This document shows positions 1,811 through 60,900 of a stretch of 64,000 bases of DNA, one piece after another. This DNA comes from a virus: UHGV virus genome UHGV-0211740. The stretch is one strand, 5' to 3'. The number at the start of each line of letters is the position of its first letter. The first letter of the stretch is position 1. The notes under the pieces were generated by a model. It was not told the origin of the DNA. It did not search any database and saw only the letters and a list, made by a program, of their open reading frames with translations. The position numbers were made by a program, and so were the translations under genes.

Positions 1811-2161
1811 TCAGTCCAGAGGTTCATCACCTATTTCACTGAAATCAATGTTCATAGTCTCTTCCCAACCATCAATTTCAGCACCTGAGTAGAGATCTTT
1901 AGGGTCTACATTAAGAGCTTCTGCAACAGCGTCCATGTTTAGCACATCTGGGAGGTAAGATTCATCAAATTCAAGGTAAATGAGGCCACGAGTGTTGTCA
2001 GCCCCACCAAATAGCTCTATCTTCATGAAATCTCCTCTGAAAATGAGAGTGTGAACAGGGTTTATACGTTCTGATATGCGTGGAATTATGCACGTTTGCC
2101 TCTTCAGGCCATGCTTTAGCATGAGAAACCTGTGTGGGCTCGGTGCTTCATAGTCTCCCAC
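1811..2161 (-). CDS. hypothetical protein
   Basis: 116-aa ORF at the distal end of the minus-strand block; no recognisable motif. Confidence 0.35.
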   Translation of the reverse strand: MGDYEAPSPHRFLMLKHGLKRQTCIIPRISERINPVHTLIFRGDFMKIELFGGADNTRGLIYLEFDESYLPDVLNMDAVAEALNVDPKDLYSGAEIDGWEETMNIDFSEIGDEPLD

Positions 2162-2534
2162 CTCTGAACCCTTCGTGATCAGGCATAACAGAGAACCGGA
2201 TATCTACGATGCCTTCCCACGTTAGGCCATCAGCCTCAGGATCACCCTGGGATTGCAGTAGGGTGGCTTCAGATATGCGTGTGTTGGTCATGCTCCGCCC
2301 GTGAGTATTCCGGCAACAGCCATTATGGACGTAATGATCATCAGGATCACCACTAAAACATCGGACAATGTTTTCATTGTGCACTCCATATTCTCCAGAC
2401 TATGTGTGGATACTATCACGGGAGGAGGAATGTGTCAACAGGAACGTCGCGAGGGTTTGGTTAAAATCCGAGCGTATGGTGATTTGGGTCAAAACGGACG
2501 TGCGTTCTCGCTACGCTCGAAATAAAAAGTATAC

Positions 2535-2756
2535 TTAAGGCTTTTTGCGGTCCAGTATCTGCTTACGCTGGATAAAGTGCATAAATGTCTCAGCCCATGA
2601 GCAATTCTGATACTCTCGGTACTTGTGCATTGCTTGACGACTCACACCGTACTCTGCAGCAAATGTAGAGACACGTAGAAAATCTGGCAGATCATCATCT
2701 TCAAAATATACCGTACTGAGAGCAATATCGTTATCGTCGTATAGAACAACTTTCAT
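2535..2756 (-). CDS. small protein, possible HTH DNA-binding
   Basis: 73-aa ORF; segment AAEYGVSRQAM resembles a helix-turn-helix recognition helix. Confidence 0.3.
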   Translation of the reverse strand: MKVVLYDDNDIALSTVYFEDDDLPDFLRVSTFAAEYGVSRQAMHKYREYQNCSWAETFMHFIQRKQILDRKKP

Positions 2757-3218
2757 AAATGATACCTCAAGATGTGGTGGTTTAGGGAAACAGTTAAATT
2801 CTTTCTAAAACGCTCTGTGATGAGATTAACTATCTAAGGTATGCAATCGTGCATCAGATAAAGAAAAGGACGCCACAGAGCGTCCTAGGTGCCTTAAATT
2901 CTATATTTTGCTATACCCATGAAGGTTTGTCCAGGTTAGAGTAGCTAAAAGGTGTCAAAAGGTGACTGTCAAAATCTTTCAAACTCTCCAGGTCTTTTTC
3001 CTCATCCTGACACCATCTGTGCCTACATTTATTGTTGTAGTGCATGGAATGCATGGCGTTCTGCAACTTAACAGGCACAAGTGATTCAGGAGCAGATAAT
3101 ACAGTAGGGTATGCCAGAACTACCTCAAACAGTGGAAACACATCAAAACTGAAGTCTATTTCTGCTGAGGTGGCTGGCATGTATGAGTATTTAGCTGTCT
3201 TTGTAGACATAATTCACC

Positions 3219-3545
3219 TCACACAGGTTTGATAATACCTTCACCGAATAGCTCTTCGTATCTAATCTTATCCGGATCCCACTCCTGGATAATTTCGAAG
3301 ACAATATCCAACCCAGGAATAATCACTTCTCCAGTGTCAAGCTTGGCAAGAACAAAACCAGAAGGCTGAATGGTTTCCCAGTTGCGACGATTGGAATAGA
3401 AGACCTCGAAAATATCACCGACCTTGATCTGTTGATCAAGATGTTCAAGATTCTCTTTCATATAGACACAGCGTATTTTTCGTGCAGGCCATAGACCACC
3501 TGCATCACGTTCATTCAATTCTTTTACAGTAATCGGCACACCCAT
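3219..3545 (-). CDS. hypothetical protein
   Basis: 108-aa ORF, tightly packed with neighbours on minus strand. Confidence 0.45.
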   Translation of the reverse strand: MGVPITVKELNERDAGGLWPARKIRCVYMKENLEHLDQQIKVGDIFEVFYSNRRNWETIQPSGFVLAKLDTGEVIIPGLDIVFEIIQEWDPDKIRYEELFGEGIIKPV

Positions 3546-4342: not shown

Positions 4343-4606
4343 TCATTTATCTTTGCCGTCAAGAACTTTTTTAAATCTTTCAGGGATATCCCCAGTTCTC
4401 AGGTAGTTCATGACCTCCCAAGGTTCCCACTTAAACTTCTTGCAGAGCAGGGCGGCTGAGATTGTTTCCTTGCGAAAAGAAAGGATATTGATATCCCACT
4501 CCGAGAACCCCAGCTTCCGAAGAGTAGCTATAGAAATCCTCACAGCAACCCAGCAAGAAAAACATGCAACAAACGCTACTGCTACAACCCACATCAGGAT
4601 GTTCAT
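4343..4606 (-). CDS. putative membrane protein
   Basis: 87-aa ORF with hydrophobic N-terminal segment WVVAVAFVACFSCWVAV. Confidence 0.4.
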   Translation of the reverse strand: MNILMWVVAVAFVACFSCWVAVRISIATLRKLGFSEWDINILSFRKETISAALLCKKFKWEPWEVMNYLRTGDIPERFKKVLDGKDK

Positions 4607-10758: not shown

Positions 10759-11220
10759 CTACTTAAATAGTAGTTCAAAATAGTGCAAAATTAGCAGAAG
10801 TTGAACTACACCCAGTGCAACGGCGAGTATGTTAATCTTAGAATCGAAAAACTTCTTAACTTTTACTCTAAAGGGTTCCTTAATATCCTTTACGATTCTA
10901 TTTATAGATGATCTCACATCCCTGATTGCCATCCTAAACATGGGAGAAGGATCTTCCTTCTCTGTAACGGAATCGAAAACATACTCTCTTCGGTCATAAG
11001 GACCGCCAGCTCTGCGTATTAACCTCTCCACAGAGACCTCGAACGACACACCTGTAACGTAATCGTCTATAACAAGTAATGACGGGTCTTCACCATCAAG
11101 AGGTATCAAAGTTATCTTCCCAGATTTTGTTGAAATCTCTCCTTTTTCAAGCAAGGTGTACCAATGCTCTCTACCAAGACTGTTGAGGCACGTTTTTACA
11201 TATTTAACAAACATCGTCAC
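10759..11220 (-). CDS. hypothetical protein with C-terminal transmembrane segment
   Basis: 153-aa ORF ending ILAVALGVVQLLLILHYF. Confidence 0.4.
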   Translation of the reverse strand: MTMFVKYVKTCLNSLGREHWYTLLEKGEISTKSGKITLIPLDGEDPSLLVIDDYVTGVSFEVSVERLIRRAGGPYDRREYVFDSVTEKEDPSPMFRMAIRDVRSSINRIVKDIKEPFRVKVKKFFDSKINILAVALGVVQLLLILHYFELLFK

Positions 11221-11420
11221 CCCTCATCGCACGTCTGATATAACCATTCTATAAAATCTTGATACCACTCTCCCTCTGAGCGCTCCGTAGGCCAATAATC
11301 CTCACCTTCTCTTGCATTAAAATCTGAGTATTCAACTTTCCACTCTTTTACCAGCTTGTGGAGAAGGTTTTCAGCCTGTTCTAAAGATTTATTTTCTGTC
11401 ATTACTGTCCCCTTTTTCAA
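11217..11420 (-). CDS. hypothetical protein
   Basis: 67-aa ORF. Confidence 0.35.
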   Translation of the reverse strand: MKKGTVMTENKSLEQAENLLHKLVKEWKVEYSDFNAREGEDYWPTERSEGEWYQDFIEWLYQTCDEG

Positions 11421-11622
11421 GATAACTGTACATCAGCGCCGCGCCACCTAAAATGGCTACCAGCAGTAATACCCCCGAGAGCATTTCAATAAACATGGCT
11501 TGAAACACTAGAAGGCCTCCTCTAATTTAACGCACCATTTTAAATACATGTTCTTTTCCCACAAAGGTGCCTGGCTAAGATCTGCGTAGAATGCAATCTC
11601 TTTAAGAACAGTATAAACAGTT

Positions 11623-11859
11623 TTAGGTGAGGTCTCCATTCCTACTCTCCTTTTTCTCCTTACGGAGATTCTTGTAGTAGTCAACCAGGCACATTATCAC
11701 AATGAAGACAACAACAGGCCAAAAAGGTGCAGCAGTAATGATGGTGATAAAATCATCAAACTTCACCCTTCGTGTAGACACGACGCATATACCTGTCAAG
11801 ATTACTGCTGTTATAACGGCTATTACTAGGTAACCCATCAGTACAGCATCTATACTCAT
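11623..11859 (-). CDS. small two-TM membrane protein (holin-like topology)
   Basis: 78 aa; two hydrophobic helices followed by a charged C-terminal tail. Confidence 0.4.
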   Translation of the reverse strand: MSIDAVLMGYLVIAVITAVILTGICVVSTRRVKFDDFITIITAAPFWPVVVFIVIMCLVDYYKNLRKEKKESRNGDLT

Positions 11860-11889
11860 TGGATCCTCCTTTACAGGTTAAATTGTATA

Positions 11890-12423
11890 CTACAGATTGT
11901 TGCTGAGGGTGTCAAGAAAATTATCCCGTTCTTTCTCAGAGTTTTCATGGGTGTAGCTGAAAAACATATCGAGAATAACCTTATTGATATATTCCAGCTC
12001 CTCTGTATTCAGATACTTATCAGGATCTACAATGACTTCCCAAATATCGTACAGACCGCACTCATGATATCCCCAACGCCACTCAATTGTTAAACTGAGC
12101 GGCAAAGCTTTACCGTCACAAACAACCTTCCATCTACAGATGTTGGTATCTGGACGCACCTGTGCACGGTATACCTGTACAAAATCCAATTTGAATTTGA
12201 GGTACTCGTCATACAATTTAAGTACAAAGCTCTCGATTTGTGGAGACACTTTTGCAGCAAACTGTGCGTATTTGTACTTGCACTGGATGATCTTTCTGCG
12301 TTTTGCAGTTAAATTTTTTGCAGACAGTTGTTCTTCAGTGTACCTCCACCTACGGTCAACAAACGCAACAGGGTCTTTGTCCCCATAGAGGTCTTCCCAG
12401 TTAATCAGAAGCATACCTGTCAC
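11890..12423 (-). CDS. hypothetical protein
   Basis: 177-aa ORF. Confidence 0.45.
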   Translation of the reverse strand: MTGMLLINWEDLYGDKDPVAFVDRRWRYTEEQLSAKNLTAKRRKIIQCKYKYAQFAAKVSPQIESFVLKLYDEYLKFKLDFVQVYRAQVRPDTNICRWKVVCDGKALPLSLTIEWRWGYHECGLYDIWEVIVDPDKYLNTEELEYINKVILDMFFSYTHENSEKERDNFLDTLSNNL

Positions 12424-33430: not shown

Positions 33431-33637
33431 TTATTCGAAGAAGTGAGTCCGAGGACAAGATCCAGCCTCGCCTTGTTTCACAAGCTCGTAGAGCTCACCT
33501 TGGCTTGTTTCATAAAGGCAAATACGTTTACCATTGTCCCGATATACATCTACAAGATACGCTGTTTCACCTGCAAACACGACACCACAGGCAAAGCATG
33601 CTGCCATGAATAAAATTGCCAACAGAAAATCTTTCAT
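33431..33637 (-). CDS. small secreted protein or lipoprotein
   Basis: N-terminal signal-like AILFMAACFACG. Confidence 0.35.
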   Translation of the reverse strand: MKDFLLAILFMAACFACGVVFAGETAYLVDVYRDNGKRICLYETSQGELYELVKQGEAGSCPRTHFFE

Positions 33638-33700
33638 GGTTAAACTCTCCTTAACATTTTACTGGGTAACAATACCACATCCGTGTGGTCATGTCAATGA

Positions 33701-34171
33701 TTAATCCAGGACAACACCGCCTGACTTTTTAAACACCTCGATCAACTTTTCGATCTTCTGTTCGTGCTGACCATACCCTGCACCAGGAAGGCTTGCCCAT
33801 CGGGATCTGCAAAGATGGATGGCCTGATGAATACGACCTTCATCGATATCATCGAGCGCCTTGCACTCACGGATCAATTGTAGTGCGATCTTATCCTGAC
33901 TGGCAGGGCCAAAATCTGGTAATCCTAACTGTTTCATATAGTGTTTAGCAAACTTCTCCAAAACTTGGTAGCGCCCCGCAGCAGAGGAGGTAAGTTTAGC
34001 ATTTAGCTTAACGTACACACCTGGATGCTTACTGTAATCGCTAAACAGCTTGCCACCGACTATGACATCATAGCCCCGATCCTTGGTAGGTTGTCTACCA
34101 TTATCTGTACCTTCTGAATATGCGATCATATCTAAGAAAGCTTTTCGTTGAACATTTTTATCAAGTTTCAT
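33701..34171 (-). CDS. endolysin, lambda R-like lytic transglycosylase
   Basis: 156 aa near-collinear with lambda R: QRKAFLDM..SEGTDNGRQ..GYDVIVGG..WASLPGAGYGQ. Confidence 0.85.
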   Translation of the reverse strand: MKLDKNVQRKAFLDMIAYSEGTDNGRQPTKDRGYDVIVGGKLFSDYSKHPGVYVKLNAKLTSSAAGRYQVLEKFAKHYMKQLGLPDFGPASQDKIALQLIRECKALDDIDEGRIHQAIHLCRSRWASLPGAGYGQHEQKIEKLIEVFKKSGGVVLD

Positions 34172-34295
34172 TTTTCATACTCTCCAATTTACTCATAACT
34201 AACCCGATCAACAACACTGCATAATGTGGTTATGTAGGTGCCAATTGAAAAACCATCATTCAATTGGCTACCGTTACCTACTAAACCTTCCTACA

Positions 34296-35579
34296 TCATT
34301 CCAGAACCTCCCAAGTGTCAGGGTTAACATTTCGGACGCAGATGCCGACAGGGAATTGGTAGTTGTTGTCTTCTGTCCTTGCTTGATATTTGAAGGTGAC
34401 AAACTTGCCGATCATTTCCTGCATCCTGTCATAGCTACGCTCCTCGTGCGTGCCTTTCATCTTCATTTTAACAACGATACCTTCCTTGTCAACGCAGATA
34501 AGAACACCTTCATCATTCTTATCTTTCTCAACGTCAATAACTTTCACCTCAGCATCGTTGAACTTTTTCCATTTCAATGCTTCAGATGTTCGCTGACCAT
34601 ATTCATATTTACCGCAGAAGTTACGCATGATAGTACCTTCATATCCTTCTGACATGAATACACCAACAGATTCTTCGCAATGATCAACTGTGTACGCAAG
34701 CTCTGCGTCAACAACCTTGATATGGTCAAGCATCAGAGTGGTAATGGTATCTTCTGCATCCATAAGGTCCTTGCATCTTCCAGATTCTGTTTCCGGATCC
34801 CACCATACCTTGTCACTAGGGATGTCGAAAATATGATACTCTAAGTCATAGCTACAGTACCCTCCGTAACGCAAATCATCACGAACAGGCTCAACATCAA
34901 CAGGAATATCTACCTTATTGAAGTTTTTGTATGTTGATAAGCCTGCCTTAATTGCGGCATGACGGCGTTTTTTATCTGCCTCGTAGTCTTTATCTATCTC
35001 GGCCTGAATCTCTTCCTGTGTGCGCCACCGTTTAGCAAGAGACACTATTTTCTGCAGAGGCAGACCATGAATATAGATCTCTCCGTCGAGCTGTTTAATC
35101 CCGGTGGTGAAGTGGAAAGAACGAAGTTGCTCCAGAAGCTTTCCTTGAATAGGGTAGGACTTATTACCACGGGAAATAAATTTAGGCTCACCGTTTTGGA
35201 AAACAACCAGTAGACGAAGGCCATCTAACTTACGCAAGATCCAGCAAGGTAATTTAAGTGCCTTTCCACGCTTCAGGTAGTCATGCATCAGCATGGGTAA
35301 AAGGTCAACCCCCTGCTCGCAATCTTCCATATTTTCAACATACCCCAGACGGACTTGTTTTTCCCACTTACTGATCGCTTCCAGCTCAGCCTGTTGCTCA
35401 GCTGTAGTTTCATTGGCACGGCCCACGTTCTTAGGTGTGCAGATCGTCTCTTTGTATTGCAGTTTACCATCAAGCTTGCCAAACTCTACGATAACCTTAT
35501 CACCATCCGTGAATACTTTCCACTGTTGGTAGCTGCCATCTTTGTTCAGTGCGTACAGTGTTGTTTTGATCTGATGCAT
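34296..35579 (-). CDS. ATP-dependent DNA ligase
   Basis: Nucleotidyltransferase motif I KLDGLR, motif IV EGYEGTIM, motif V LKWKKF. Confidence 0.75.
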   Translation of the reverse strand: MHQIKTTLYALNKDGSYQQWKVFTDGDKVIVEFGKLDGKLQYKETICTPKNVGRANETTAEQQAELEAISKWEKQVRLGYVENMEDCEQGVDLLPMLMHDYLKRGKALKLPCWILRKLDGLRLLVVFQNGEPKFISRGNKSYPIQGKLLEQLRSFHFTTGIKQLDGEIYIHGLPLQKIVSLAKRWRTQEEIQAEIDKDYEADKKRRHAAIKAGLSTYKNFNKVDIPVDVEPVRDDLRYGGYCSYDLEYHIFDIPSDKVWWDPETESGRCKDLMDAEDTITTLMLDHIKVVDAELAYTVDHCEESVGVFMSEGYEGTIMRNFCGKYEYGQRTSEALKWKKFNDAEVKVIDVEKDKNDEGVLICVDKEGIVVKMKMKGTHEERSYDRMQEMIGKFVTFKYQARTEDNNYQFPVGICVRNVNPDTWEVLE

Positions 35580-35848
35580 TACTCAGCCTCTTCCTTAAAA
35601 ATTTTAAACATCTCTTCTTTGCTCATTACCAACCAGTCTCCCATAAAGTCAACTAACCAATCCCCTTGGTACAAGACCAGGTTACCAAACGGCTCGACAA
35701 GCTCACACATGCGAAGAATATCTCTGGTCCGAACAGGTGACGGTGTAAACACACCTGTATCAATCCACCGTTGCAGATCAGATACTGATGAAGAGCTTCC
35801 GTCAAACTGGTGTGCTTCTACAGGTTTAGCAAGATTAAATAACGGCAT
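35579..35848 (-). CDS. hypothetical protein
   Basis: 89-aa ORF. Confidence 0.4.
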   Translation of the reverse strand: MPLFNLAKPVEAHQFDGSSSSVSDLQRWIDTGVFTPSPVRTRDILRMCELVEPFGNLVLYQGDWLVDFMGDWLVMSKEEMFKIFKEEAE

Positions 35849-36206: not shown

Positions 36207-36920
36207 TTAAATATACTCTGTTACATCCTTGAAGCTTGAAGGCTTCATAATCTTACCTTTGCTGTCAAGGAAGATGATAACCTTATTACCGTTGTAGAAT
36301 TCTTCTTTAGCAACAAAACCTTCATATCTACCATCGAAGCGTCGCTCAAGATCTTTAATCTCTAACTCTACAAGTTGTTCAACAGGCATATCTGCACTGG
36401 CACCGTGTGAATACCGTAGATGGTTGACCCGTGCAAACTTGCTGTCATTAGATTTGAGAACCTTCCGCATCATCCCGCACACATCACCGCGAAGCTGGAA
36501 TAGCAAAGCTGTTGACAACTCCGCCAGGCGGTAAGCAGAAGCTTTTTGCTTGGAGGTGTTTTTTGCAGCGATCAGTGTGTCATAGAACTCACCGATCTTA
36601 AACTTAAGACCTCGCGGATTATCAAACAGGTTTGACCACTTTTCATGATTATCATTAACAAGATAAGCGGCATAGCTTGTAACAACATGAAGATCGCAGG
36701 CCTCTTTTAGCAGATGATCTCCACCATCACCTTTCTCCAGCTCTTCCAAAACCTCATTAAACTCTTCCTCAATGAAGCTAAGTTGTAATTCGAATGGTGT
36801 GTATGATTTTTTCACTTTAGCTGCCACACGGTTCCAGTTTTCCACCCAGTTGGCAGACCAAAGGTAGTTTTCAGGTTGGGACAGTTTTTCCAGATTGTCA
36901 ATTAACTTAGTATTCAGCAT
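36207..36920 (-). CDS. hypothetical protein, possible MazG-like nucleotide pyrophosphohydrolase
   Basis: 237 aa; acidic helix FIEEEFNEVLEELEK resembles the metal-binding EExxE motif of all-alpha NTP pyrophosphatases; weak. Confidence 0.3.
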   Translation of the reverse strand: MLNTKLIDNLEKLSQPENYLWSANWVENWNRVAAKVKKSYTPFELQLSFIEEEFNEVLEELEKGDGGDHLLKEACDLHVVTSYAAYLVNDNHEKWSNLFDNPRGLKFKIGEFYDTLIAAKNTSKQKASAYRLAELSTALLFQLRGDVCGMMRKVLKSNDSKFARVNHLRYSHGASADMPVEQLVELEIKDLERRFDGRYEGFVAKEEFYNGNKVIIFLDSKGKIMKPSSFKDVTEYI

Positions 36921-36933
36921 TAAAGGTCTCCTT

Positions 36934-37695
36934 TTAAAGTTCCATGAAGTTTTCTACAGTTTCAATCAATGTTTTATCAGAGAAAGCGTCAACCGCACCG
37001 TTAAACCAAACAGGAATGCCGCGATCCTCATACTGGTAAATGTCACTACGTGAAATGCCATTCTCCTCCAAATGCTGTGAGTCATATTTGTTAACAATCA
37101 ACAGCTTAGTTCCCTTGTTACAGGCAGGGAACAGCTCCCAGTTAAAATTGATAACTGTGTTTGAGCACCCTACAAGGATAACCATATCATTGCTTGTCAG
37201 AGAAGTCAACAGATCATACATGTCTGTATACTTTGGAGCAACTTCTCCGAAGAACACCACATTAGGCTTAACCCAAATATACTCGCCTGCATCTACCTCC
37301 GAATACCCAATGTCTTTAATGACATTGCTTCCTTCATCGTCCTCATAGACTATTTCTGGCAAATACCCGTGGACATGTAAAATATCTTCATGTTTTACAC
37401 CAGCACGCTCTAGCAAATCATCTACATTGGTGGTCAGGTTGATCACACGACCAGACCAACGAGAATACCACTCTGCGATCCGGAGATGTGCAAGATTAGG
37501 CTCAACACTGCCCAAAGCTATACGCCGTGCATTGTAAAAGTCATGCACCTTATAATAGTTCTTGGCAAAGGTGTGGATGTTACACACCTCATCGATGCTG
37601 AAATTCTCCCACATTGCAGTGCTACCAGATCGAAAGGTGGGGATACCGGATTCAGCACTCAAGCCAGCACCAGAGATAACAATCAGTCGTCGCAT
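36934..37695 (-). CDS. Sir2-family NAD-dependent protein (sirtuin-like)
   Basis: N-terminal GAGLSAESGIPTFR Rossmann motif and downstream HG catalytic dyad; no Zn-binding Cys pairs. Confidence 0.75.
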   Translation of the reverse strand: MRRLIVISGAGLSAESGIPTFRSGSTAMWENFSIDEVCNIHTFAKNYYKVHDFYNARRIALGSVEPNLAHLRIAEWYSRWSGRVINLTTNVDDLLERAGVKHEDILHVHGYLPEIVYEDDEGSNVIKDIGYSEVDAGEYIWVKPNVVFFGEVAPKYTDMYDLLTSLTSNDMVILVGCSNTVINFNWELFPACNKGTKLLIVNKYDSQHLEENGISRSDIYQYEDRGIPVWFNGAVDAFSDKTLIETVENFMEL

Positions 37696-38712: not shown

Positions 38713-39669
38713 TCATTGCATATAGTCCTCGTTGTGGAAATAGTAGTCAAGTATCTCACGACGTTCCTGCTCAAGGAGGCAGTTCCACACATCCTCTGTG
38801 TAGTTGTTACGAATGAAGTTTACCATGCCATAAAACTCTTCGTCAATACGTTTAAAGATATCCTCATCCCAAATCTTCCAAGCTCTCCCTCTCATTACGG
38901 CCTTCCGTGCCAGGTAGTATGGAGATTTGATCTTCAACTGCAGGTCATAAGGGTAGTAAGGATTACGGATCATGTACCCTTCGCCCCTTGTTTCTGCAGC
39001 TAATTCTTTTGCATAGCTGAACGGAATTTCACGCACAGTGTGAGGACGTTTTGCACCAAGATACTTGGCAATACCGTCTAAAGCCGCTTCTGGTAGCATT
39101 ATTCCAGAATCATTGTATCTACAACCTATCAAATACGCACCATGATCCTCATGAACAATATGCGGGTCTGAAGGGTGACAAATTTCAAACATAAATGTCA
39201 TGTTTTCATGGCCCATAACCTTCTTGATAAGATCTAAATTGCCACATTGCTCCTGAATGGTTTCCTTTGCAAGGTTACAATATGGAGAATCAAGAGACCC
39301 AGTCGTTGAGAATAATAGTTCACCTTTATGAGAGGATACCACGCCAAGGAACCCGTTCTTTTTCTCTACAGCCGTCACAAGCTTATTGTCAGGTAGGTTG
39401 GTTGAGTTTTCTCCCAAGTTAAACACTTTTGTGAAGGGCCATGCCACAACATTCCCCTCGTTACCGACAACAATGCCTCGGCACTCCAGTAGACGCGGAG
39501 AAAAATGCCATAAATTGTTGTAGAATACTTTTCTGGCATATTTGTAGATCTTTAATCCGAGATCTGGATAATACCGACTGGTTACAAGACCTTTATCCAC
39601 TAAATCATCTGCATTAAAATACTTCATCATGCGTTCCTCATTTGTCATTTTGTTCCACAATCTTCCCAC
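38713..39669 (-). CDS. RNA ligase, Rnl1 (T4 RnlA) family
   Basis: LLECRGIVV, KVFNLGEN, motif I VEKKNGF, motif IV EGYMIR and motif V LKIKS line up with T4 Rnl1. Confidence 0.75.
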   Translation of the reverse strand: MGRLWNKMTNEERMMKYFNADDLVDKGLVTSRYYPDLGLKIYKYARKVFYNNLWHFSPRLLECRGIVVGNEGNVVAWPFTKVFNLGENSTNLPDNKLVTAVEKKNGFLGVVSSHKGELLFSTTGSLDSPYCNLAKETIQEQCGNLDLIKKVMGHENMTFMFEICHPSDPHIVHEDHGAYLIGCRYNDSGIMLPEAALDGIAKYLGAKRPHTVREIPFSYAKELAAETRGEGYMIRNPYYPYDLQLKIKSPYYLARKAVMRGRAWKIWDEDIFKRIDEEFYGMVNFIRNNYTEDVWNCLLEQERREILDYYFHNEDYMQ

Positions 39670-39748
39670 ACAAACAGTATCATGTCAACACTTGAAATGC
39701 TCAAAAGAACACGGTATACTGTCGTTAAAATTAAAACGGAGGGTCGCT

Positions 39749-40159
39749 ATGTCTAAAATGCTATATATCGTGCGTGGTCTACCAGGGTCTGGCAAATCAA
39801 CACTGGCAAATGCGTTATCTTTAGAAGGTCTGTATCCACATTTTGAGAACGACATGTTCTGGTACGACGATGATGGAAATTACAACTGGGATGCAAGTAA
39901 AGTGACACTTGCTGCAAAATGGTGCAAAGATAATATAGAAGATATGATGCGTATGGGGTACGACCGTGTCGTGGTAAGCAACACATTCACAAAAGAAAAG
40001 CATGTGCAAGAGTATATTGACATGGCGATCCGTAATGGGTATAATTACACAGTAATCGTGGTGGAGAATCGCCACGGTAACAAAAGTATCCACAATGTTC
40101 CAGAAAAGGTTGTGGATCGTATGGAACGTGAACTGAAAAACTGTATTAAACTTAAATGA
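39749..40159 (+). CDS. P-loop kinase, putative polynucleotide 5-prime kinase
   Basis: Start refined to the ATG after a GGAGGG RBS; Walker A VRGLPGSGKST like the T4 Pnk kinase domain. Confidence 0.55.
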   Translation: MSKMLYIVRGLPGSGKSTLANALSLEGLYPHFENDMFWYDDDGNYNWDASKVTLAAKWCKDNIEDMMRMGYDRVVVSNTFTKEKHVQEYIDMAIRNGYNYTVIVVENRHGNKSIHNVPEKVVDRMERELKNCIKLK

Positions 40160-40166
40160 GGATAGT

Positions 40167-40721
40167 ATGAAATATTTTATAACAAGTGACACACACTTTC
40201 TCCACCAGCGTGTTATGGAGTTCGATTCTTGTCAAAAGCACAGATCGCAGTATAACCACGATCTTGATAGCATGAATGCAGGGATCATAGACAAGTGGAA
40301 CTCAATTGTGTCACCATGGGACACTGTGTTCCACTTGGGAGACATTGCATGCACTAAGGATAAGAATATCAACAACTTACTGCCTGAAATTCTAAATATG
40401 CTGAACGGACATATTATTCTTGTTCGTGGTAACCATGACACAAGGACGACTGTCAGAATTATGAAAGAGTTCTGTCATGAGGTTGTAGATTATTACGAGC
40501 TTCGCCACAACAAGAATCTGATCTGTATGAGCCATTACCAGTTTGCAACGTGGAACAGAAAGCCCCACGGATCAGTTCAACTGTTTGGTCATGCTCACGG
40601 AACCACACAACAGTTATTTGGCAGGCAGTTGGATGTTGGTTGGGATGTATGGGGTAGACTGTTACCACTAGAAGAGGCATACAGCCTTGCAATGAGTTTT
40701 GATATTGACAGCAGGGAGTAA
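40167..40721 (+). CDS. calcineurin-like metallophosphoesterase
   Basis: Motifs SDTHF, LGDIA, RGNHD and GHAHG of the binuclear metallophosphoesterase fold. Confidence 0.7.
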   Translation: MKYFITSDTHFLHQRVMEFDSCQKHRSQYNHDLDSMNAGIIDKWNSIVSPWDTVFHLGDIACTKDKNINNLLPEILNMLNGHIILVRGNHDTRTTVRIMKEFCHEVVDYYELRHNKNLICMSHYQFATWNRKPHGSVQLFGHAHGTTQQLFGRQLDVGWDVWGRLLPLEEAYSLAMSFDIDSRE

Positions 40722-43659: not shown

Positions 43660-43734
43660 GCCCTGTTAGCTTAGTGGATAAAGCAGCGGCCTTCTAAGCC
43701 GTTGACACTGGTTCGAGTCCAGTACGGGGTGCCA
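43660..43734 (+). tRNA. tRNA-Arg (anticodon TCT)
   Basis: 7-bp acceptor stem, T-arm CTGGTTCGAGTCCAG, anticodon loop CTTCTAA, 3-prime CCA encoded. Confidence 0.75.
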
Positions 43735-43738
43735 AATC

Positions 43739-43825
43739 GGGGAGTTATACCGTAGAGGTAGCGGTGTAGACTGTAAATCTATTGTCATTGCGACTCGGGT
43801 GGTTCGACTCCATCACTCCCCACCA
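43739..43825 (+). tRNA. tRNA-Tyr (anticodon GTA)
   Basis: Acceptor GGGGAGT/ACTCCCC, anticodon loop CTGTAAA, long variable arm, T-loop GGTTCGACTCC, CCA encoded. Confidence 0.75.
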
Positions 43826-43936
43826 AAATCCCATATTTGTGATAAATAATATAGATAATGACATTGATGTTTATCGTCGTTTATACTAGTCCCTAACTGT
43901 TCGAAAATCAGTGTCATTATCAGTGTTGTTTATAAA

Positions 43937-44026
43937 AGAGAGTAGGGAGCATGGTGCTCAAGCGGTCTTGAAAACCGTCCCGTTGAGATATCCTCGATGA
44001 TGGTTCGATTCCATTACTCTCTGCCA
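43937..44026 (+). tRNA. tRNA-Ser (anticodon TGA)
   Basis: Perfect 7-bp acceptor AGAGAGT/ACTCTCT, anticodon loop CTTGAAA, long variable arm, T-loop TTCGATT, CCA encoded. Confidence 0.75.
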
Positions 44027-44124
44027 GATCGTGGATCATGAAATTAAGCGAGCGCCGGAAGCAGAACCGGATTAACAAATGTTACAGTCGTCATCGCCGA
44101 CTAGCAGCATGATCCACATAATAT

Positions 44125-44221
44125 GCTAGGTAAGCCCTTTGGCAAGGGCGAGGATTTTTAATCCTGAAAATAGACGAAGCAGTCGTTGAATACATAGGTG
44201 GTTCGATTCCATCGCCTAGCA
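44125..44221 (+). tRNA. atypical 97-nt tRNA-like gene (possible pseudo-tRNA or non-canonical tRNA)
   Basis: Perfect acceptor stem GCTAGGT/GCCTAGC and canonical T-arm GGTGGTTCGATTCCATC, but no clean 5-bp anticodon stem with 7-nt loop (closest is AGGA/TCCT with loop TTTTTAA) plus about 30 nt of extra internal sequence; no encoded CCA. Confidence 0.35.
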
Positions 44222-44228
44222 CCTTTTT

Positions 44229-44304
44229 GCTGATGTAGCACAATTGGTAGTGCAATTGATTTGTAATCAATAGGTTGCAGGTTCAAGTCCTGCCATCAGC
44301 ACCA
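44229..44304 (+). tRNA. tRNA-Thr (anticodon TGT)
   Basis: Acceptor GCTGATG/CATCAGC, anticodon stem-loop ATTGA-TTTGTAA-TCAAT, T-loop GGTTCAAGTCC, CCA encoded. Confidence 0.8.
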
Positions 44305-44305
44305 T

Positions 44306-44380
44306 GTCCCTGTAGCTGGAAGGTTCAAGCAAGCGACTCATAATCGCCAGACGGTGGTTCAATTCCACCCAGGGCCACCA
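44306..44380 (+). tRNA. tRNA-Met or Ile2 (anticodon CAT)
   Basis: Acceptor GTCCCTG/CAGGGCC with one mismatch, anticodon loop CTCATAA, T-arm GGTGGTTCAATTCCACC, CCA encoded. Confidence 0.7.
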
Positions 44381-44391
44381 AATTATAAATA

Positions 44392-44468
44392 CTCCGCGTA
44401 GCTCAGCTTGGTAGAGCGCCTGATTTGGGATCAGGAGGTCGAGTGTTCGAATCACTCCGTGGAGACCA
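44392..44468 (+). tRNA. tRNA-Pro (anticodon TGG)
   Basis: C1-G72 acceptor CTCCGCG/CGTGGAG, D-arm AGCTCAGCTTGGTAGAGC, anticodon loop TTTGGGA, T-loop GTTCGAATC, CCA encoded. Confidence 0.8.
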
Positions 44469-44781: not shown

Positions 44782-44886
44782 GTATTAGTCTCCTTTTAGT
44801 TAGTTTAGATCTATTTAGGTTACTCAATTTTAACCCGCCCCGTTAGCTGTATGGCTGCGGGGTTTTTTCGTTTCTGGAGCCGTAAA

Positions 44887-45285
44887 ATGATTTCAGTTTT
44901 AACATGGCTGGGCAGGTATAAAGGGGTCATAAAAGGTTTAGTTTTTGCAGCAACTCTTGGTATAGCCTATCTTGGTGCCGTATATTGGTTTAATTCTAAG
45001 CTTGACACTGCTTACCAGGAGGGTGTGACAGCAACAGAGTTGAAGTGGGAACGGATCCTTGATCAGCAACAAAAGCAAGCTGACAGGATTAAAATGGGCC
45101 ATGCAGAGGAGGTTAAAAACCTTGAAAAATCCCTTTCTGACCTGCAGGATAAATTAAGTATAGCTGAGAAGGCAGGTAAAGAAAAGCAGATTATTTACCT
45201 CCAATCGCCTGAAGGTAAGAAGTCAACACTTCCTGATCAGCTTATAGAGATTTATAATGAGAGTATCAATCAGGAGGGTCGATGA
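44887..45285 (+). CDS. putative i-spanin (Rz-like)
   Basis: Start refined downstream of a terminator-like hairpin; N-terminal TM VIKGLVFAATLGIAYLGAVYWF followed by a coiled-coil periplasmic domain. Confidence 0.5.
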   Translation: MISVLTWLGRYKGVIKGLVFAATLGIAYLGAVYWFNSKLDTAYQEGVTATELKWERILDQQQKQADRIKMGHAEEVKNLEKSLSDLQDKLSIAEKAGKEKQIIYLQSPEGKKSTLPDQLIEIYNESINQEGR

Positions 45286-45569
45286 GAGTTGCTGCACTAC
45301 TTATTATGTGCTTGTTATTATGTGGGTGTACAACCAGCGTTGAGAGAGAATACAAGATTGACCCTCCGGATGTAGGGAGGTTGATTGTTAAACCACCAGA
45401 GGGTGCCATGAAACCACCTGCTAAAGCCGTGCCTTTGAAGAAGGGTGCCCCGGATGCGGTGAATTCTGGCATTATGAGGGATAATAACCTATCTTGCAGT
45501 AATGATAGAGCTAAATTAATCATTTTGCAAGACTATATTAGAACACTGTTTCCAAAGGAGAGAGGTTAA
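45282..45569 (+). CDS. putative o-spanin (Rz1-like lipoprotein)
   Basis: Lipobox LLLCGC near the N-terminus, proline-rich mature region, overlaps i-spanin stop. Confidence 0.55.
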   Translation: MRVAALLIMCLLLCGCTTSVEREYKIDPPDVGRLIVKPPEGAMKPPAKAVPLKKGAPDAVNSGIMRDNNLSCSNDRAKLIILQDYIRTLFPKERG

Positions 45570-45994
45570 TGTCTAAGATTTACGGACCGTGTTCTGAAAA
45601 GCAGAAGATGATCCTGGAAAATGATGCAGATATTTTGGTAATTGGCGGGGCTGCAGGATCTGGCAAGTCATTCCTCTTGCAGCTAATGCCGCTTAAAATT
45701 ATTGATGACCCGCACAGCTCTGTGGTTATGTTCCGAAGAACAACCCCACAGTTGGAAGGTGAGGGGGGACTATGGCCTAAAGCAGTAGCTATTTATAGTG
45801 ATCTGCCAGAAAACATTAAGCCAAAGTTTAGAGAGAAGGATCATAAGTTCATTTTTCCACGGTTTGATCCGAGCACTGGCAAGTGGGACAGGAGCAAAAA
45901 GGGAGCTGTTGTAAAATACTGCCACATGGAATATGTCCAAGATAAGCTTAACCATCAGGGTTTGGAATACACCATGGTTTGCTTCGATGAGGGT
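45569..45994 (+). CDS. terL: terminase large subunit, exon 1 (ATPase N-terminal part)
   Basis: Walker A GGAAGSGKS and Walker B MVCFDE; reading frame terminates at a TAA that begins the intron. Confidence 0.75.
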
Positions 45995-46877
45995 TAATTT
46001 GTAGCTCTCGTAAAACCTCCCTAATTGCGGGGAAATCTTTATTATTGACACCACCAATCTGTCATGGTAACATGATAGAGGCTTCGAAGAGAGATCGAAG
46101 GTATGGTAACAGTGTGTTAATTTAGATAATCCGCAGCGAAGCATCCGAGAGGATGAACGTTCAACGACTAGTCGAAAGACGTAGAATCAAGCGATTCGAA
46201 ACGGGAGGGTGCATGTGTAATACTAAAAAATGTATGGATTGCCAAAGAGTTCTACCTATTGATGATTTCTTTTTATCATCTAAGAGCAAGGATGGATACT
46301 CAGGTACATGCAAGGAATGCTATATGTACTACAGGAAGGGTGGATCTCGTAAAAACAAAAATATGGTTAAGAGAGATGACGCAGCATTGTTTATTCAAGA
46401 CTTGCTGAAGAAAGGTGAACTTTTTGAATGCAAATCTTGTCATAAAAGTATGCTCGCTGATAGTTTTTACACAAAACGTGACTATGGCAAAGTATATCTG
46501 GTTACGAACAGGTGTAAGATGTGTGAAAAGTTTTATCAGATTGAGAAGAAATTTCACATAACAAAAGATGAATACTATCGTCTACTCTCAGATCAAGATC
46601 ATAAGTGTGCCATTTGTAGAATATCTCTTGATGAGTATAGGACGCAAGGGTACAGAGATTTCTTTTGTGTTGATCATGACCATAAAACTGGTGCTGTAAG
46701 AGGGTTGCTTTGTGATAAATGCAACAGAGCTTTAGGCTTCTTCCAAGAAGATGAGGAAACTATTCTTAAAGCGGCAGAATATTTACACATTCATAAGATA
46801 TAGTCTGGTCTGCATGGAGACATGCAGCTGCCTGAAAATGGCGGGGCAAGACTAGCGACCTTGCCCGAACATAAACG
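45995..46877 (+). mobile_element. group I self-splicing intron carrying a homing endonuclease ORF (3-prime boundary approximate)
   Basis: Core elements in canonical order: P AATTGCGGGGAAA (~46030), Q AATCCGCAGC (46128), R GTTCAACGACTAGTC (46159), S AAGATATAGTCTGG (46795); internal guide GCTCTC pairs with exon end GAGGGT. Confidence 0.65.
46153..46803 (+). CDS. intron-encoded homing endonuclease, Endonuclease VII/HNH-like
   Basis: Cys-rich N-terminus and CVDHDHKTGAVRGLLCDKCN Endo VII core; ORF lies between intron R and S elements; true start may be an internal ATG. Confidence 0.65.
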   Translation: MNVQRLVERRRIKRFETGGCMCNTKKCMDCQRVLPIDDFFLSSKSKDGYSGTCKECYMYYRKGGSRKNKNMVKRDDAALFIQDLLKKGELFECKSCHKSMLADSFYTKRDYGKVYLVTNRCKMCEKFYQIEKKFHITKDEYYRLLSDQDHKCAICRISLDEYRTQGYRDFFCVDHDHKTGAVRGLLCDKCNRALGFFQEDEETILKAAEYLHIHKI

Positions 46878-47999
46878 ACACAATTCGAATGGGAGCAGAT
46901 AGACTATCTGATGTCTCGTTTGCGATCTCAGTCAAAGTATCCATCAAGAATGGTTATCAGCTGTAACCCCGACTCAGAGCATATGCTTGCCAAACTGGTT
47001 AGATGGTGGCTGGACGATGAAGGGTATCCAGATCCGGAGAAATGTGGCAAGAAAAGATATTTTATCCGGCGTGACGGTGAATTTATTTGGGGAGACTCTA
47101 AAGAGGAGTTGATAGAGAAATACACCACAGTTAATGGACTGGGTGTGGAGATCAAGCCAAGACCGTTGTCATTCTCGTTTATAGGCGCAACAATATTCGA
47201 TAATCCTGTCTGCTTGAGAGACAACCCAGAATACCTTGCTTTCCTTGAAGGTCTGCCAGAACTGGAAAAAGCTCAGCTTCTTCATGGTAACTGGTTTGCC
47301 AAACCTGAGGGTGCGAACTACTTTCAAAGATCTTTCCTTCGTGATGCCGACAGCGTACCTTTAGGGTCTGTGTCTTGCAGGGCATGGGATAAAGCTGGAA
47401 CTGAAAGAACTTCAGGTAATAAATTCCCTGACTTTACTGCCAGTGTCAAGGTAAGTAAAGATAGTGATGGATTCTACTACCTGTCAGGAGATTATTGTCC
47501 GGAGAACGTGGATGACGGGAGATATTCCACAGGTCTGGAAGGCAAGTTCTGTAAAAAGGCTGGCGAACGAGATGTGATCATCAGGAAACAGGCGCAGTTT
47601 GATGGTGATGATTGTATAATCGTATTCTCTGTGGACCCCGGTCAGGCAGGTAAGAGTGAGTTCTTAACCTCATCCAGATCCTTGCTCGCCGAAGGTTTCA
47701 GGGTTGAAGAAGACCCAATGCCTTCCAACAAATCTAAACTGACAAGGTTCTCACCTTTTGCCAATCTTGCCCAACAAGGGATGGTGAGGATTGTAAAATC
47801 CAGTTTCCATCCTGATACTTTGGAAGCATTTCTGACTGAACTTGAAAAGTTCAACGGGGAAAGATCAACATTTAACAGAAAAGACGACTGGGCCGACTGT
47901 GTAGCATCTGCGATTAATTTCCTGGAGAAAGAGGAGGTAGCACTGCCTTGTGTGATCCCATCAATATCATCACCTTCTATGTTTAAGCGTTTTATCTAA
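46878..47999 (+). CDS. terL: terminase large subunit, exon 2 (ATPase C-motif and nuclease domain); exon start approximate
   Basis: In-frame continuation with no stops from 46875; contains VISCNP coupling-motif-like segment and C-terminal nuclease-like acidic residues; possible splice acceptors after G at 46877, 46892, 46895 or 46898. Confidence 0.65.
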   Translation, partial: TQFEWEQIDYLMSRLRSQSKYPSRMVISCNPDSEHMLAKLVRWWLDDEGYPDPEKCGKKRYFIRRDGEFIWGDSKEELIEKYTTVNGLGVEIKPRPLSFSFIGATIFDNPVCLRDNPEYLAFLEGLPELEKAQLLHGNWFAKPEGANYFQRSFLRDADSVPLGSVSCRAWDKAGTERTSGNKFPDFTASVKVSKDSDGFYYLSGDYCPENVDDGRYSTGLEGKFCKKAGERDVIIRKQAQFDGDDCIIVFSVDPGQAGKSEFLTSSRSLLAEGFRVEEDPMPSNKSKLTRFSPFANLAQQGMVRIVKSSFHPDTLEAFLTELEKFNGERSTFNRKDDWADCVASAINFLEKEEVALPCVIPSISSPSMFKRFI

Positions 48000-58560: not shown

Positions 58561-60900
58561 ATGGCTACAAATAAGATAGTTGCCACAACAGTCAACAAGA
58601 TTGGCTTTGAGATAGAGAACTCCTCCTACAAAAAAGCTGTAGAGAAAATTCGCAGTATCGGGAAGGAGTTCAGGAAACTGGGCGAGGATTTTAACTCAGC
58701 CAACCCCATGAGCAGATGGCAGGCAGTGGCTGTTAAAACTCAGCAGACAATGCAACGTGTTGCCAGACAGCAATCCCAAGCAAATGCTAAACTACACAGG
58801 GAGAGCGTTGCTCAGGCCAAGAAAGAGGCTGCAGTAAAGGCTGCAATAGAGCGCAGGGAGAATGCAAGACGTAAGCAAGCTGTAGGCAATCTTACCGCCA
58901 AAAACCCAGAGATGGCTAGGATGCGTAAGTTCTACCAGCAGCAAGCTAAAGAGGCCAAAAAAGCTGCCAAATCTGCACCAGTATCCTATGGTGGTTATAA
59001 GGCACCTAAGGCAAGAGTTCTTGCTAACGCCAAGTCTTTCAGATATATTCCCGGCAACCCTAACATGGGTGGGGTGGCTTCAGATCCTAATCTTGTGAAA
59101 GCCCAGACTGCTGCCATGAACCGTTATCACAGACAGCTAAGAAGGGACAGCAAGGCTGGGATGGATAATAGGCTTATGGCAGATCGTGAGGCAAGGAGAA
59201 CCCACCTCTACAACTCTGCGATAAGACTTTCTGCTAAATATGGTGCCGGATTCCGTGGCAGATTGTCTGGGTATTCGGAGTTAGAGTCCCGATTTGCTCG
59301 CGGGGAAATGAGTAAGTCAACCTTTAACGCCCACCTGTCTGCGTTGCAGTCTGGATTCAAAAGTGCCACCAGCCAAACTCTGACCCTCGGTGATGCTATG
59401 AGGGATTTGCGTAGATCTGTGATCAACGCTACAGCTGCGTATACAGCTTTTTCTGGATTTGCTGCAGTTAACAGATCCGGTCATATGATGGAGGGGGCAA
59501 GTGCTGCTCTTACTGCTGTTACTGGAGATCCAAACAAAGCCAACAGTGAAGTTGCGTTTGTCCAGCAGGAGGCTATGCGTCTTGGTTTTGACCTCAAGTC
59601 TGGTCTTCAGGGTTATTCTCAGATGGCGGTAAACGCCAAAAATCAGATGACAAACCAAGAGGTGCATGAGCTATTCTCTGCATACTCCCAATATGCTGCT
59701 GCTTACGGTGCCGATGAGGTAAAATACCAGCGCGGTATTATGGCAATCCAGCAAATGCTCGGTAAAGGGCAAGTAATGTCCGAAGAACTGAAGCAACAAC
59801 TTGCTGAAGCATTACCTGGTGCATACGAACCTTTTATCAAAGCTACCCAAGAGGCTTTTGGTCTTGCTGAGCTCTCCATGGATCAGTTCATGGACATGAT
59901 GAAAAAAGGTGAAGTTAAAACAGCCAAGATAATGAAGTATGTGGCTAAGTACATGAATGAGGCATCTGCAGCTGGTTATGAAAGAATGCAGAAGTCTAAC
60001 GTACTGGCAGAAAACAGACTGAAAACCTTCATCGAACTGTCCCGTCAGAAACTGTTCACACGTTGGGCAGATGAACTGACAGAGTTCTACTACACCCTGA
60101 TCCGCACAGGGGAAACTTTCCAGTTCCTATGGGACGCTTCTGGTGACTTTGTCAGCGGATTTGTGAGAGGTTTGAACTGGGTTGTTGGTGAACTAAACAA
60201 CACTATAGTTAAGATCCGTTTGTTTTTCCTTGAATGGGGAATTAAATGGGGGCTCATAACCGCCAAGACGAAGGAATATTCTGAAGAGATACATGACACC
60301 TTTAGCATGGCTAAATGGGCAGGGTATGCTGCTGCAATCATGCTGGTAGTGAACGCCCTTACAAAAGGGTTTGTTATGGCATCCATGCTTGTAAAAACAT
60401 TTAAGTTCCTCAGCAACCTGAGAGGTGCAGCTGGAGCTGCAGGTGCTGGTGCAGTAACCGCAGACGGCTCTGGAGGAGGAGCAGCCGGAAAAGGTGGTGG
60501 TGGCCTCAAGACACCTGGTGGCAAAGTTGGTCTGCTCGGTAAGCTGGGCATTATCGGTACAATACTAAGCGCCGGGGAATTATTTAATGACCGTTTCAAC
60601 CCGCTGAGTGAAAGAAATCAACAGCTGGATACCATCGGCGATATGATTCGTAAAGACATCATATCTGGAGGTAACGGGTTTGTTGATCCTCTAAGCACCT
60701 TGCCGGGAGGTACTCTTCCGTTACCAGGTGGCCCTGGTTTTGCTTCTCAGTTAAGAACTATGGAAATGCTACCTTTAGAGATCAGTGATGGTAAAATCAC
60801 GATTTCAATAGATGAGGGCGAGTTTAGCAAAATATTTGATGCAAAACTTGAGTGGGAGAACAGTAAAGATATCAACTTTATGTCCACAGATCTTTGGTAA
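58561..60900 (+). CDS. tail tape measure protein
   Basis: 779 aa, helical with Gly/Ala-rich segment (AAGAAGAGAVTADGSGGGAAGKGGGG), downstream of the chaperone pair. Confidence 0.75.
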   Translation: MATNKIVATTVNKIGFEIENSSYKKAVEKIRSIGKEFRKLGEDFNSANPMSRWQAVAVKTQQTMQRVARQQSQANAKLHRESVAQAKKEAAVKAAIERRENARRKQAVGNLTAKNPEMARMRKFYQQQAKEAKKAAKSAPVSYGGYKAPKARVLANAKSFRYIPGNPNMGGVASDPNLVKAQTAAMNRYHRQLRRDSKAGMDNRLMADREARRTHLYNSAIRLSAKYGAGFRGRLSGYSELESRFARGEMSKSTFNAHLSALQSGFKSATSQTLTLGDAMRDLRRSVINATAAYTAFSGFAAVNRSGHMMEGASAALTAVTGDPNKANSEVAFVQQEAMRLGFDLKSGLQGYSQMAVNAKNQMTNQEVHELFSAYSQYAAAYGADEVKYQRGIMAIQQMLGKGQVMSEELKQQLAEALPGAYEPFIKATQEAFGLAELSMDQFMDMMKKGEVKTAKIMKYVAKYMNEASAAGYERMQKSNVLAENRLKTFIELSRQKLFTRWADELTEFYYTLIRTGETFQFLWDASGDFVSGFVRGLNWVVGELNNTIVKIRLFFLEWGIKWGLITAKTKEYSEEIHDTFSMAKWAGYAAAIMLVVNALTKGFVMASMLVKTFKFLSNLRGAAGAAGAGAVTADGSGGGAAGKGGGGLKTPGGKVGLLGKLGIIGTILSAGELFNDRFNPLSERNQQLDTIGDMIRKDIISGGNGFVDPLSTLPGGTLPLPGGPGFASQLRTMEMLPLEISDGKITISIDEGEFSKIFDAKLEWENSKDINFMSTDLW

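Follow-up and report, generated by a model that had tools for sequence, protein, structure and literature searches.

In phage lambda, Rz/Rz1 come after the endolysin gene R within a single late operon, and in the lambdoid phages homologues of this lysin adjoin S holins. The lysis genes of T4 have been noted as unclustered, and the spanin families of rv5 were listed in the same work (Kongari 2018). The genome paper of phage rV5, in its section on lysis, names Gp89 as the lysin, with a match to PF00959.14, and reports no holin homologue (Kropinski et al. 2013, PMC3606486). The 78-aa gp129, the only protein with two transmembrane domains (TMDs) by both TMHMM and Phobius, is given there and in Table S3 as the "putative holin" (2 TMD), and is described as a "putative holin separated from the lysin as in T4" (PMC3606486). 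According to the CB7 paper, the spanin pair of CB7, rV5 and PVP-SE1 adjoins the large terminase, outside any lysis cassette.

LysECP26, the endolysin of the related phage vB_EcoM-ECP26, has been purified from E. coli; it is muralytic and lyses Gram-negative cells only after EDTA treatment. Phages of the rV5-like group are widely used for the biocontrol of E. coli O157 and are present in commercial phage products. To our knowledge, none of these phages has a demonstrated holin; identification of the membrane protein that acts as one would complete their lysis pathway and could add another holin family to those described.

The genome and its lysis genes

The window, by which is meant the whole stretch of 64,000 nucleotides of viral DNA that was analysed (UHGV virus genome UHGV-0211740), contains an endolysin gene within a long minus-strand block. 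Over a 2-kb stretch around this gene the identity to Escherichia phage NHEP1 is 99.4%, more than 100 other Vequintavirus (rV5-like) genomes match this stretch at 90% or more, and the endolysin locus is common to 122 phage records. Judged by these matches, the window is part of the genome of a Vequintavirus, an rV5-like myophage of E. coli. The strand bias flips near 40 kb. Genes of nucleic-acid metabolism and many small ORFs occupy the minus-strand block from 1 to 39.7 kb; tRNAs, spanins, terminase and structural genes lie in the plus-strand block. The "early" character of the block around the lysin is read from its gene content (ligase, exonuclease, RNase H, Sir2, RNA ligase). Features bearing on lysis are collected in Table 1.

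Table 1. Positions of the lysis-related features and of their neighbours in the window
Feature	Position	Strand	Description
78-aa ORF, rV5 gp129 orthologue	11623..11859	minus	two TMDs, K/R-rich tail; best holin candidate
68-aa ORF, rV5 gp90	33431..33637	minus	predicted Sec signal peptide; two conserved Cys in the mature part (about 45 aa)
Sigma-70-like promoter	33669..33697	minus	TTGACA-17-TATTGT, TG before -10; between lysin stop and 68-aa ORF
Endolysin, rV5 gp89 orthologue	33701..34171	minus	156 aa, soluble; predicted lambda-R-type lytic transglycosylase
Ligase-lysin spacer	34172..34295	minus	124 nt
Strong hairpin in spacer	~34234..34281	minus	GTAGGT..GCCAATTGA-loop-TCAATTGGCACCTAC; no U-tract behind
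DNA ligase, ATP-dependent	34296..35579	minus	upstream of endolysin; Pfam DNA_ligase_A_M and OB_2
i-spanin	44887..45285	plus	132 aa, N-terminal TMD; phrog_4297 Rz-like spanin, E=6e-46
o-spanin	45282..45569	plus	95 aa, lipoprotein signal ...LLLCG|C; phrog_1267, E=3e-23

A signal-less endolysin of the lambda R type

Residues 4-154 of the endolysin align with residues 3-153 of lambda R (phmmer, PDB 1am7/3d3d, E=3.2e-56), and the protein matches phrog_90 "endolysin" with E=5e-55. These PDB and PHROGs matches, on which the family assignment rests, bear out the original reading of the enzyme as lambda R-like. Identity with lambda R is about 63% by tblastn; the S-E-G-T motif is kept (AYSEGT, against AWSEGT in lambda R) and the catalytic Glu is conserved, E20 of the endolysin corresponding to E19 of lambda R. 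The transglycosylase chemistry of the enzyme, that of family GH104, is predicted from this homology. Scans against Pfam (E<=0.01) and NCBIfam returned no family match. Because PF00959 was recorded for the rV5 lysin in 2013, the missing match looks like a gap in the coverage of the current models and not like evidence against homology. The protein shares 97% of its amino acids with rV5 gp89 and 95% with LysECP26. Among the virion proteins of rV5 flagged by mass spectrometry in Table S3, gp89 is absent.

An export signal on the endolysin, named beforehand as counting against the proposed scheme, was not present. The maximum 19-residue Kyte-Doolittle hydropathy is 0.42, where 1.6 was the cut-off for a membrane segment, and the N-terminal windows are all negative. 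There being no hydrophobic segment, the enzyme is therefore without a signal or SAR domain. The gene is best read as encoding a canonical signal-less lambda-R-type endolysin in its usual, genus-wide position (probability about 0.85). By analogy with lambda R, an endolysin of this type would accumulate folded in the cytoplasm and would reach the cell wall only once an unlinked holin had opened the inner membrane; the two-component spanin encoded before TerL would then disrupt the outer membrane. The same analogy would make the rV5-like endolysin dependent on a holin.

Outside the genus, the lysin has its closest homologues in Salmonella siphophages, at about 69% identity, and, at 63-66%, in lambdoid phages. 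Shigella phage CM1 carries, at the equivalent locus, a mosaic lysin allele with 51% overall identity, which agrees exactly with the window protein in its first 14 and its last 6 residues and diverges in the core. Acinetobacter phage ABPH49 has its R-like lysin elsewhere in the genome, next to RNR genes and flanked by a non-membrane ORF and PhoH. The GC content of the lysin gene (0.446) and its GC3 (0.42), used as a composition test for recent transfer, equal those of the neighbouring genes, and any transfer would then probably be old. In these comparisons the lysin behaves like an exchangeable module placed among genes of DNA metabolism.

Surroundings of the endolysin and spanin genes

The layout first described for the window holds. 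The endolysin was placed between DNA ligase and small minus-strand ORFs, the spanins 11 kb away on the plus strand directly before the terminase, and no holin beside either; all of this was found, the neighbours of lysin and spanins matching no known holin family, and lysin, spanins and holin candidate do lie at unlinked loci.

Downstream of the endolysin come the 68-aa ORF, a 72-aa DUF7205 protein and then an HNH endonuclease. The DUF7205 ORF is missing from some relatives. Among ORFs of at least 20 aa around the lysin and spanin loci, on both strands, a hydrophobic segment was seen only in the two spanins, in the 68-aa ORF and in ORFs running antisense within the ligase and HNH genes. On the coding strand from 33638 to 36200 there is no ORF with a TMD. 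A lambdoid holin-endolysin-spanin cassette is absent on both sides, DNA ligase standing upstream where the holin would be expected and the spanins, on the downstream side, being found at 44887..45569 on the opposite strand.

The spacer between ligase and lysin shows 97% column identity in four Vequintavirus genomes, with two substitutions in the stem of its hairpin that are not compensatory. The minimum free energy fold of the 171-nt stretch 34130..34300, which contains the hairpin, has z = -2.4, and Rfam held no family match for it.

The two spanin genes overlap by 4 nt, and the stop of the o-spanin overlaps by one base the start codon of TerL, which begins at 45569. A TMD in the i-spanin, a lipoprotein signal with its Cys in the o-spanin and overlapping genes together mark a two-component spanin; the CPT annotation of phage Murica likewise gives an i-spanin and an o-spanin. 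For the i-spanin, 44887 is the most likely start, which yields the same length as in Murica, 132 aa. The start of the longer ORF, 44851, falls within a terminator hairpin, and GGAG precedes the ATG at 44887. This hairpin lies about 20 nt before the i-spanin start, and the spanins are therefore probably transcribed by read-through from upstream.

Candidates for the holin

Two small membrane proteins had been put forward as holin candidates. The one at 4343..4606 has a single N-terminal hydrophobic segment. The other, the 78-aa ORF, had been credited with two TM helices and a charged tail, and both features are confirmed; it is the gp129 proposed by the rV5 authors, to which it is 83% identical. 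Its hydrophobic segments comprise residues 11-29 and 40-58 (Kyte-Doolittle 2.6 and 2.5), and its tail has 6 K/R and 4 D/E in 19 residues. The general features of a holin, that is, at least one TMD, small size and a charged C-terminus, are all present.

No holin family in Pfam, PHROGs or NCBIfam matched the 78-aa ORF. In 18 members of its family TMD2 and the preceding KFDDF are almost invariant, and TMD1 and the tail vary. A word-indexed search returned Vequintavirus proteins only. A profile search of 1.84 billion representatives, a library that carries no names or annotation, added just three remote relatives of 72-75 aa with the same architecture. To judge from these searches, the family is nearly confined to rV5-like phages. 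No viral locus was obtained for two of the three remote relatives; the third recurs in viral contigs of 118-140 kb in IMG/VR. On one of these (L013) the order is a 171-aa ORF, the two-TMD ORF, small ORFs and a 151-aa protein with a C-terminal TMD, which is the local gene order around the 78-aa ORF as well. The counterpart of the 151-aa protein in rV5 is gp133, whose presence in the virion is supported by mass spectrometry. In this contig, the one examined, no lysis gene was found near the two-TMD ORF.

Proteus phage Mydo and Cronobacter phage GAP31 also encode a small protein with two hydrophobic segments upstream of their gp133 homologue. These positional analogues share a D..(F/W)P motif with the 78-aa ORF, at a similarity that hhalign does not find significant (probability 0.2%). 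The succession of a two-TMD gene and, a few genes on, a gp133-type virion protein is conserved in the IMG/VR relatives, Mydovirus and Seunavirus, in none of which does a lysis gene lie close to it. The 78-aa ORF thus appears to be a conserved membrane protein of the genome backbone, which is compatible with an essential role. The argument from linkage failed, the family never adjoining a lysis gene. Directly upstream of the gene, at 11915..11887, there is a possible sigma-70-like promoter (TTGACA-17-TAGTAT), of a kind whose 10/12 matches occur barely above the chance rate; if real, it would not fit late expression. That the 78-aa ORF is the holin is a tentative proposal, to which we give rather less than an even chance.

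Other membrane proteins were surveyed in the same way. The small proteins with hydrophobic segments encoded in the window and in the rest of NHEP1 matched no holin family in Pfam and PHROGs, nor did a selection of them in NCBIfam. Among the TMD-bearing small proteins of the window and the remaining NHEP1, none matched the families of the T4 holin T or of the antiholins RI/RIII. NHEP1 encodes at 60435..60803 a 122-aa two-TMD protein of the rV5 gp183 type ("1-2 TMD" in the rV5 table), and its region of unknown function holds several further small membrane proteins, without a match to a holin family.

A second muralytic gene in close relatives

Had a canonical holin been encoded next to a different lysin immediately beyond the window, the picture of a lysin without an adjacent holin would have changed. 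Another such enzyme is present in close relatives, beyond the part that corresponds to the window: NHEP1 and rV5 (gp2) encode a 166-aa SleB-like protein of the Hydrolase_2 family (PF07486, E=2e-19), immediately upstream of rIIA-rIIB; a signal-like segment lies at its N-terminus. On inspection, the genes on its two sides code for no membrane-spanning protein, and the original prediction stands on this point too. Conservation of the SleB-like protein extends over Vequintavirinae genera, T5-like phages and Pakpunaviruses, and records often label it "endolysin". A typical SFA|K site closes the signal of the Certrevirus homologue.

With this signal-peptide-bearing protein in the same genomes, the R-like enzyme may not be the sole, or even an essential, lysin, and a complete lysis model for these phages must account for the exported SleB-like enzyme. 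One such model would have two arms, a swappable cytoplasmic R-type endolysin released by an uncatalogued holin of the gp129 type, and a Sec-exported SleB-like hydrolase that stays inactive until the membrane is depolarised. The position of the gp129 type and its D..(F/W)P motif recur across Vequintavirinae genera. If the model were true, a membrane protein without relation to the known holins would determine when lysis occurs. As a whole this model is unlikely.

Another reading makes the Sec-exported SleB-like hydrolase the principal, ancestral lysis enzyme, already outside the membrane and activated by depolarisation, and the lambda-R-like gene a later, horizontally acquired accessory or redundant lysin. 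The toxicity of a SleB-like protein on expression, reported in the CB7 paper, agrees with this. So do the place of the gene directly before rIIA-rIIB and its broad conservation, set against an R-like lysin that differs in allele and locus between relatives. The SleB-like gene is, however, present in T5 too, and T5 lyses with a different, holin-linked endolysin, which counts against the SleB-like protein as the principal lysin. The CB7 paper credits the genus of CB7 with one more peptidoglycan hydrolase in addition to the SleB-like one, and PVP-SE1 has its own characterised endolysin, both of which suggest another role for the SleB-like protein. The R-like gene, moreover, is kept in essentially all Vequintavirus genomes at 87-100% identity, CM1 with its 51% being the one exception seen. 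We consider a principal SleB-like lysin quite improbable.

The 68-aa ORF beside the lysin

A hydrophobic segment not mentioned in the original prediction is found at residues 4-22 of the 68-aa ORF downstream of the lysin. The ORF matches phrog_4641, of function unknown, and is 95-100% conserved within the genus. The segment is followed by a signal-peptidase-type site, which reads VFA|G in the window; Salmonella phage SSBI34 and ABPH49 have homologues with AHA|G or AHA|S at this place. The mature part has two invariant Cys, kept in both homologues, and no basic tail. The sigma-70-like promoter between the lysin stop and this ORF, found by scanning, is the P090 of rV5 (rV5 Table S4), and in phage Gotham a promoter is predicted at the equivalent place.

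Its position made this ORF a candidate for the missing holin or antiholin, with the lysin as part of a small cassette. It adjoins the lysin on the same strand across a gap of 63 nt, begins with a strong hydrophobic segment, and is annotated "putative membrane protein" in several genomes. Against this, the hydrophobic segment is single and starts at residue 4, ahead of a cleavage-type site, two Cys and a tail that is not basic; the ORF has a sigma-70-like promoter of its own; and in CM1 an additional gene, of the HNH type, parts it from the lysin. The homologues in SSBI34 and ABPH49, furthermore, occupy a ligase-exonuclease interval in which no R-like match and no gene named lysin was found. 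The signal-peptide features and the content of this interval speak against the ORF as a holin, and we hold a role for it as holin or antiholin to be very improbable. Its sequence most likely denotes a Sec-secreted periplasmic peptide with two cysteines, part of the backbone of the subfamily, and it is probably not a lysis gene.

Self-export of the endolysin through a signal or SAR domain, which would need only a pinholin or none, is refuted at the sequence level and found no point in its favour: the peak hydropathy of the enzyme is far under the cut-off, its N-terminus (MKLDKNVQRKAFLDM...) is collinear with the cytoplasmic lambda R from residue 4, and TMD1 of the 78-aa candidate is strongly hydrophobic, unlike that of a SAR-type pinholin.

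Regulation and lysis timing

From the scattered genes an unusual regulation of lysis timing had been suggested. This was not borne out, the layout being genus-wide (122 records), described in 2013 and likened to T4 even then. The "late promoter" motif of rV5, TGGTAAAATA, occurs at 17 sites in the window against 6.3 expected, a count that no shuffle reached. It is absent upstream of the lysin (in the ligase-lysin spacer), of the spanins and of the 78-aa gene. Masking of translation in the manner of T4 e was rejected for the lysin: folding of its 5' region gave a strong upstream hairpin and no stable pairing of the SD or the AUG. A literature search for transcriptomics of Vequintavirus found nothing usable, and a paper on the holin of UE-M6 was set aside as concerning an unrelated phage. 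Nothing in these results speaks for a special timing control of lysis, or against one.

Comparison with known lysis systems

The dispersed layout is already known from the 2013 genome paper of rV5, which describes it together with the same holin candidate (PMC3606486). In rV5 and ECP26 the lysin likewise follows DNA ligase and precedes the 68-aa ORF, and rV5 has unlinked spanins and a 78-aa "putative holin" as in the window, its lysin differing by few substitutions. What is added here is the SleB-like hydrolase flagged in relatives, the observation that the gp129 family never adjoins a lysis gene, and the reading of the 68-aa neighbour as most likely a secreted peptide, argued against as a holin.

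With lambda R the endolysin shares fold family, length, catalytic Glu and the absence of a signal sequence. The surroundings differ. The lysin of lambda and the lambdoid phages adjoins an S holin, whereas here it is flanked by DNA ligase and the gene of the predicted secreted peptide; the spanins are 11 kb off on the other strand, and no S-like holin was found in Pfam and PHROGs scans.

The 78-aa ORF resembles class II holins (two TMDs, N-in/C-in, such as S of phage 21) in its two helices, short loop and basic tail. Unlike them, it has no sequence relation to the families catalogued in Pfam, PHROGs and NCBIfam and does not lie next to the lysin. Its TMD1 is strongly hydrophobic and not SAR-like, and three positive charges in the loop (RRxK) make its topology ambiguous.

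From T4 the locus departs in that its endolysin is of the lambda R family and not of the T4 E family, and in that neither a T4-like late promoter nor a hairpin masking the ribosome-binding site was seen ahead of the lysin; homologues of gp33/45/55 are absent according to the rV5 paper (PMC3606486). In overall plan the two are alike. Both are large virulent myophages in which endolysin, holin (in the window a candidate) and spanins of the separated type lie at unlinked loci, the scattered lysis genes of T4 being e, t, rI, rIII and pseT.3/pseT.2, and rIIA/rIIB occur in close relatives of the window phage too. That the lysis genes are scattered reflects an inherited genome organisation of the T4 kind and is not evidence of special timing. 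The significance of the locus lies mainly in annotation, its layout being the documented norm of Vequintavirus and resembling that of T4.

Lysin locus and possible lysis genes

Beyond the limits of the window, close relatives have a gene for a SleB-like Hydrolase_2 protein that carries a Sec-type signal at its N-terminus (coordinates of this and the other features are in the table). The gene has a T5.083 homologue on its upstream side and is directly followed by rIIA-rIIB. T5-like phages share the hydrolase, as do many other virulent phages. The protein may contribute to lysis.

In the Shigella phage CM1, the 14 N-terminal and 6 C-terminal residues of the lysin are identical to those of the window lysin, the core is divergent (51% identity overall), and an additional 253-aa HNH-type ORF follows the gene. 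The mosaic allele, together with this extra ORF, suggests an exchange at the lysin locus tied to a homing endonuclease.

Downstream of the lysin lies a 68-aa ORF, and members of its family carry a signal-peptide-like N-terminus with an AxA-type cleavage site, leaving a mature peptide of ~45 aa with two invariant Cys residues. The ligase-exonuclease interval is the conserved place of this family across Vequintavirinae genera, and the 68-aa ORF has a sigma-70-like promoter of its own. The product may be a periplasmic effector. On the other side of the lysin, the 124-nt spacer from the ligase gene is 97% conserved among the four genomes compared and contains a strong hairpin that lacks a U-tract and has no Rfam match; the stem showed two substitutions among these genomes, neither of them compensatory.

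The gene for the 78-aa holin candidate is the first in a row of tightly coupled small genes. The 39-aa product has one TMD and an acidic tail, and the 153-aa product, an orthologue of rV5 gp133, has a TMD at its C-terminus. Mass spectrometry found rV5 gp133 in virions, an odd location for a tail-anchored membrane protein.

Strand-switch region, spanins and terminase

The genes surrounding the divergent strand-switch region, with names borrowed from the Murica and Gotham annotations, could form an RNA-repair or NAD-related counter-defence set.

At every locus queried in the phage database, about 20 GenBank records titled 'Campylobacter phage' (MG0656xx, host C. jejuni) were near-identical to E. 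coli Vequintavirus genomes, which looks like a database labelling or contamination problem.

Features in the window and in related phages
Feature	Location	Strand	Remark
Small-gene run	10759..11859	-	78 aa (two TMDs), ~43 aa, 39 aa, ~60 aa, 153 aa, in this order
Late-type motif TGGTAAAAGA	11344..11353		upstream of 153-aa gene
68-aa ORF	33431..33637	-	
Homologue, relative's locus L005	2465..2683		
Homologue, relative's locus L006	2501..2713		
Hairpin	34234..34281	-	6 bp plus 10 bp, 7-nt bulge; in spacer 34172..34295
MazG/NTP-pyrophosphohydrolase-like ORF	36207..36920	-	
Sir2-like NAD-dependent deacetylase	36934..37695	-	
T4 RnlA-like RNA ligase	38713..39669	-	
Kinase/phosphatase-like ORFs	39629..40721	+	
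Six tRNA genes (Arg, Tyr, Ser, Thr, Met, Pro)	43660..44468	+	followed by 118-aa ORF
Rho-independent-type terminator	~44833..44869		after 118-aa ORF
TerL gene	45569..47999		
TerL 5' part	45569..45994		Murica TerL residues 1-142
Insertion	45995..46877		883 nt
HNH endonuclease ORF	46153..46803		inside insertion
TerL 3' part	46878..47996		Murica TerL residues 143-515
SleB-like Hydrolase_2 gene	L003 (NHEP1) 34020..34520	-	NHEP1 88719..89219
CM1 mosaic lysin allele and HNH-type ORF	L008 (CM1) 2001..3314		

The terminator beyond the tRNA genes ends ~20 nt 5' of the i-spanin start codon, a gap too short to hold a promoter, so expression of the spanin-TerL genes probably depends on read-through. The TerL gene itself is split in two by an insertion, its parts being 99% identical to Murica TerL. 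This insertion, with its HNH ORF, is consistent with the intron-plus-homing-endonuclease arrangement reported in rV5 and LL12.
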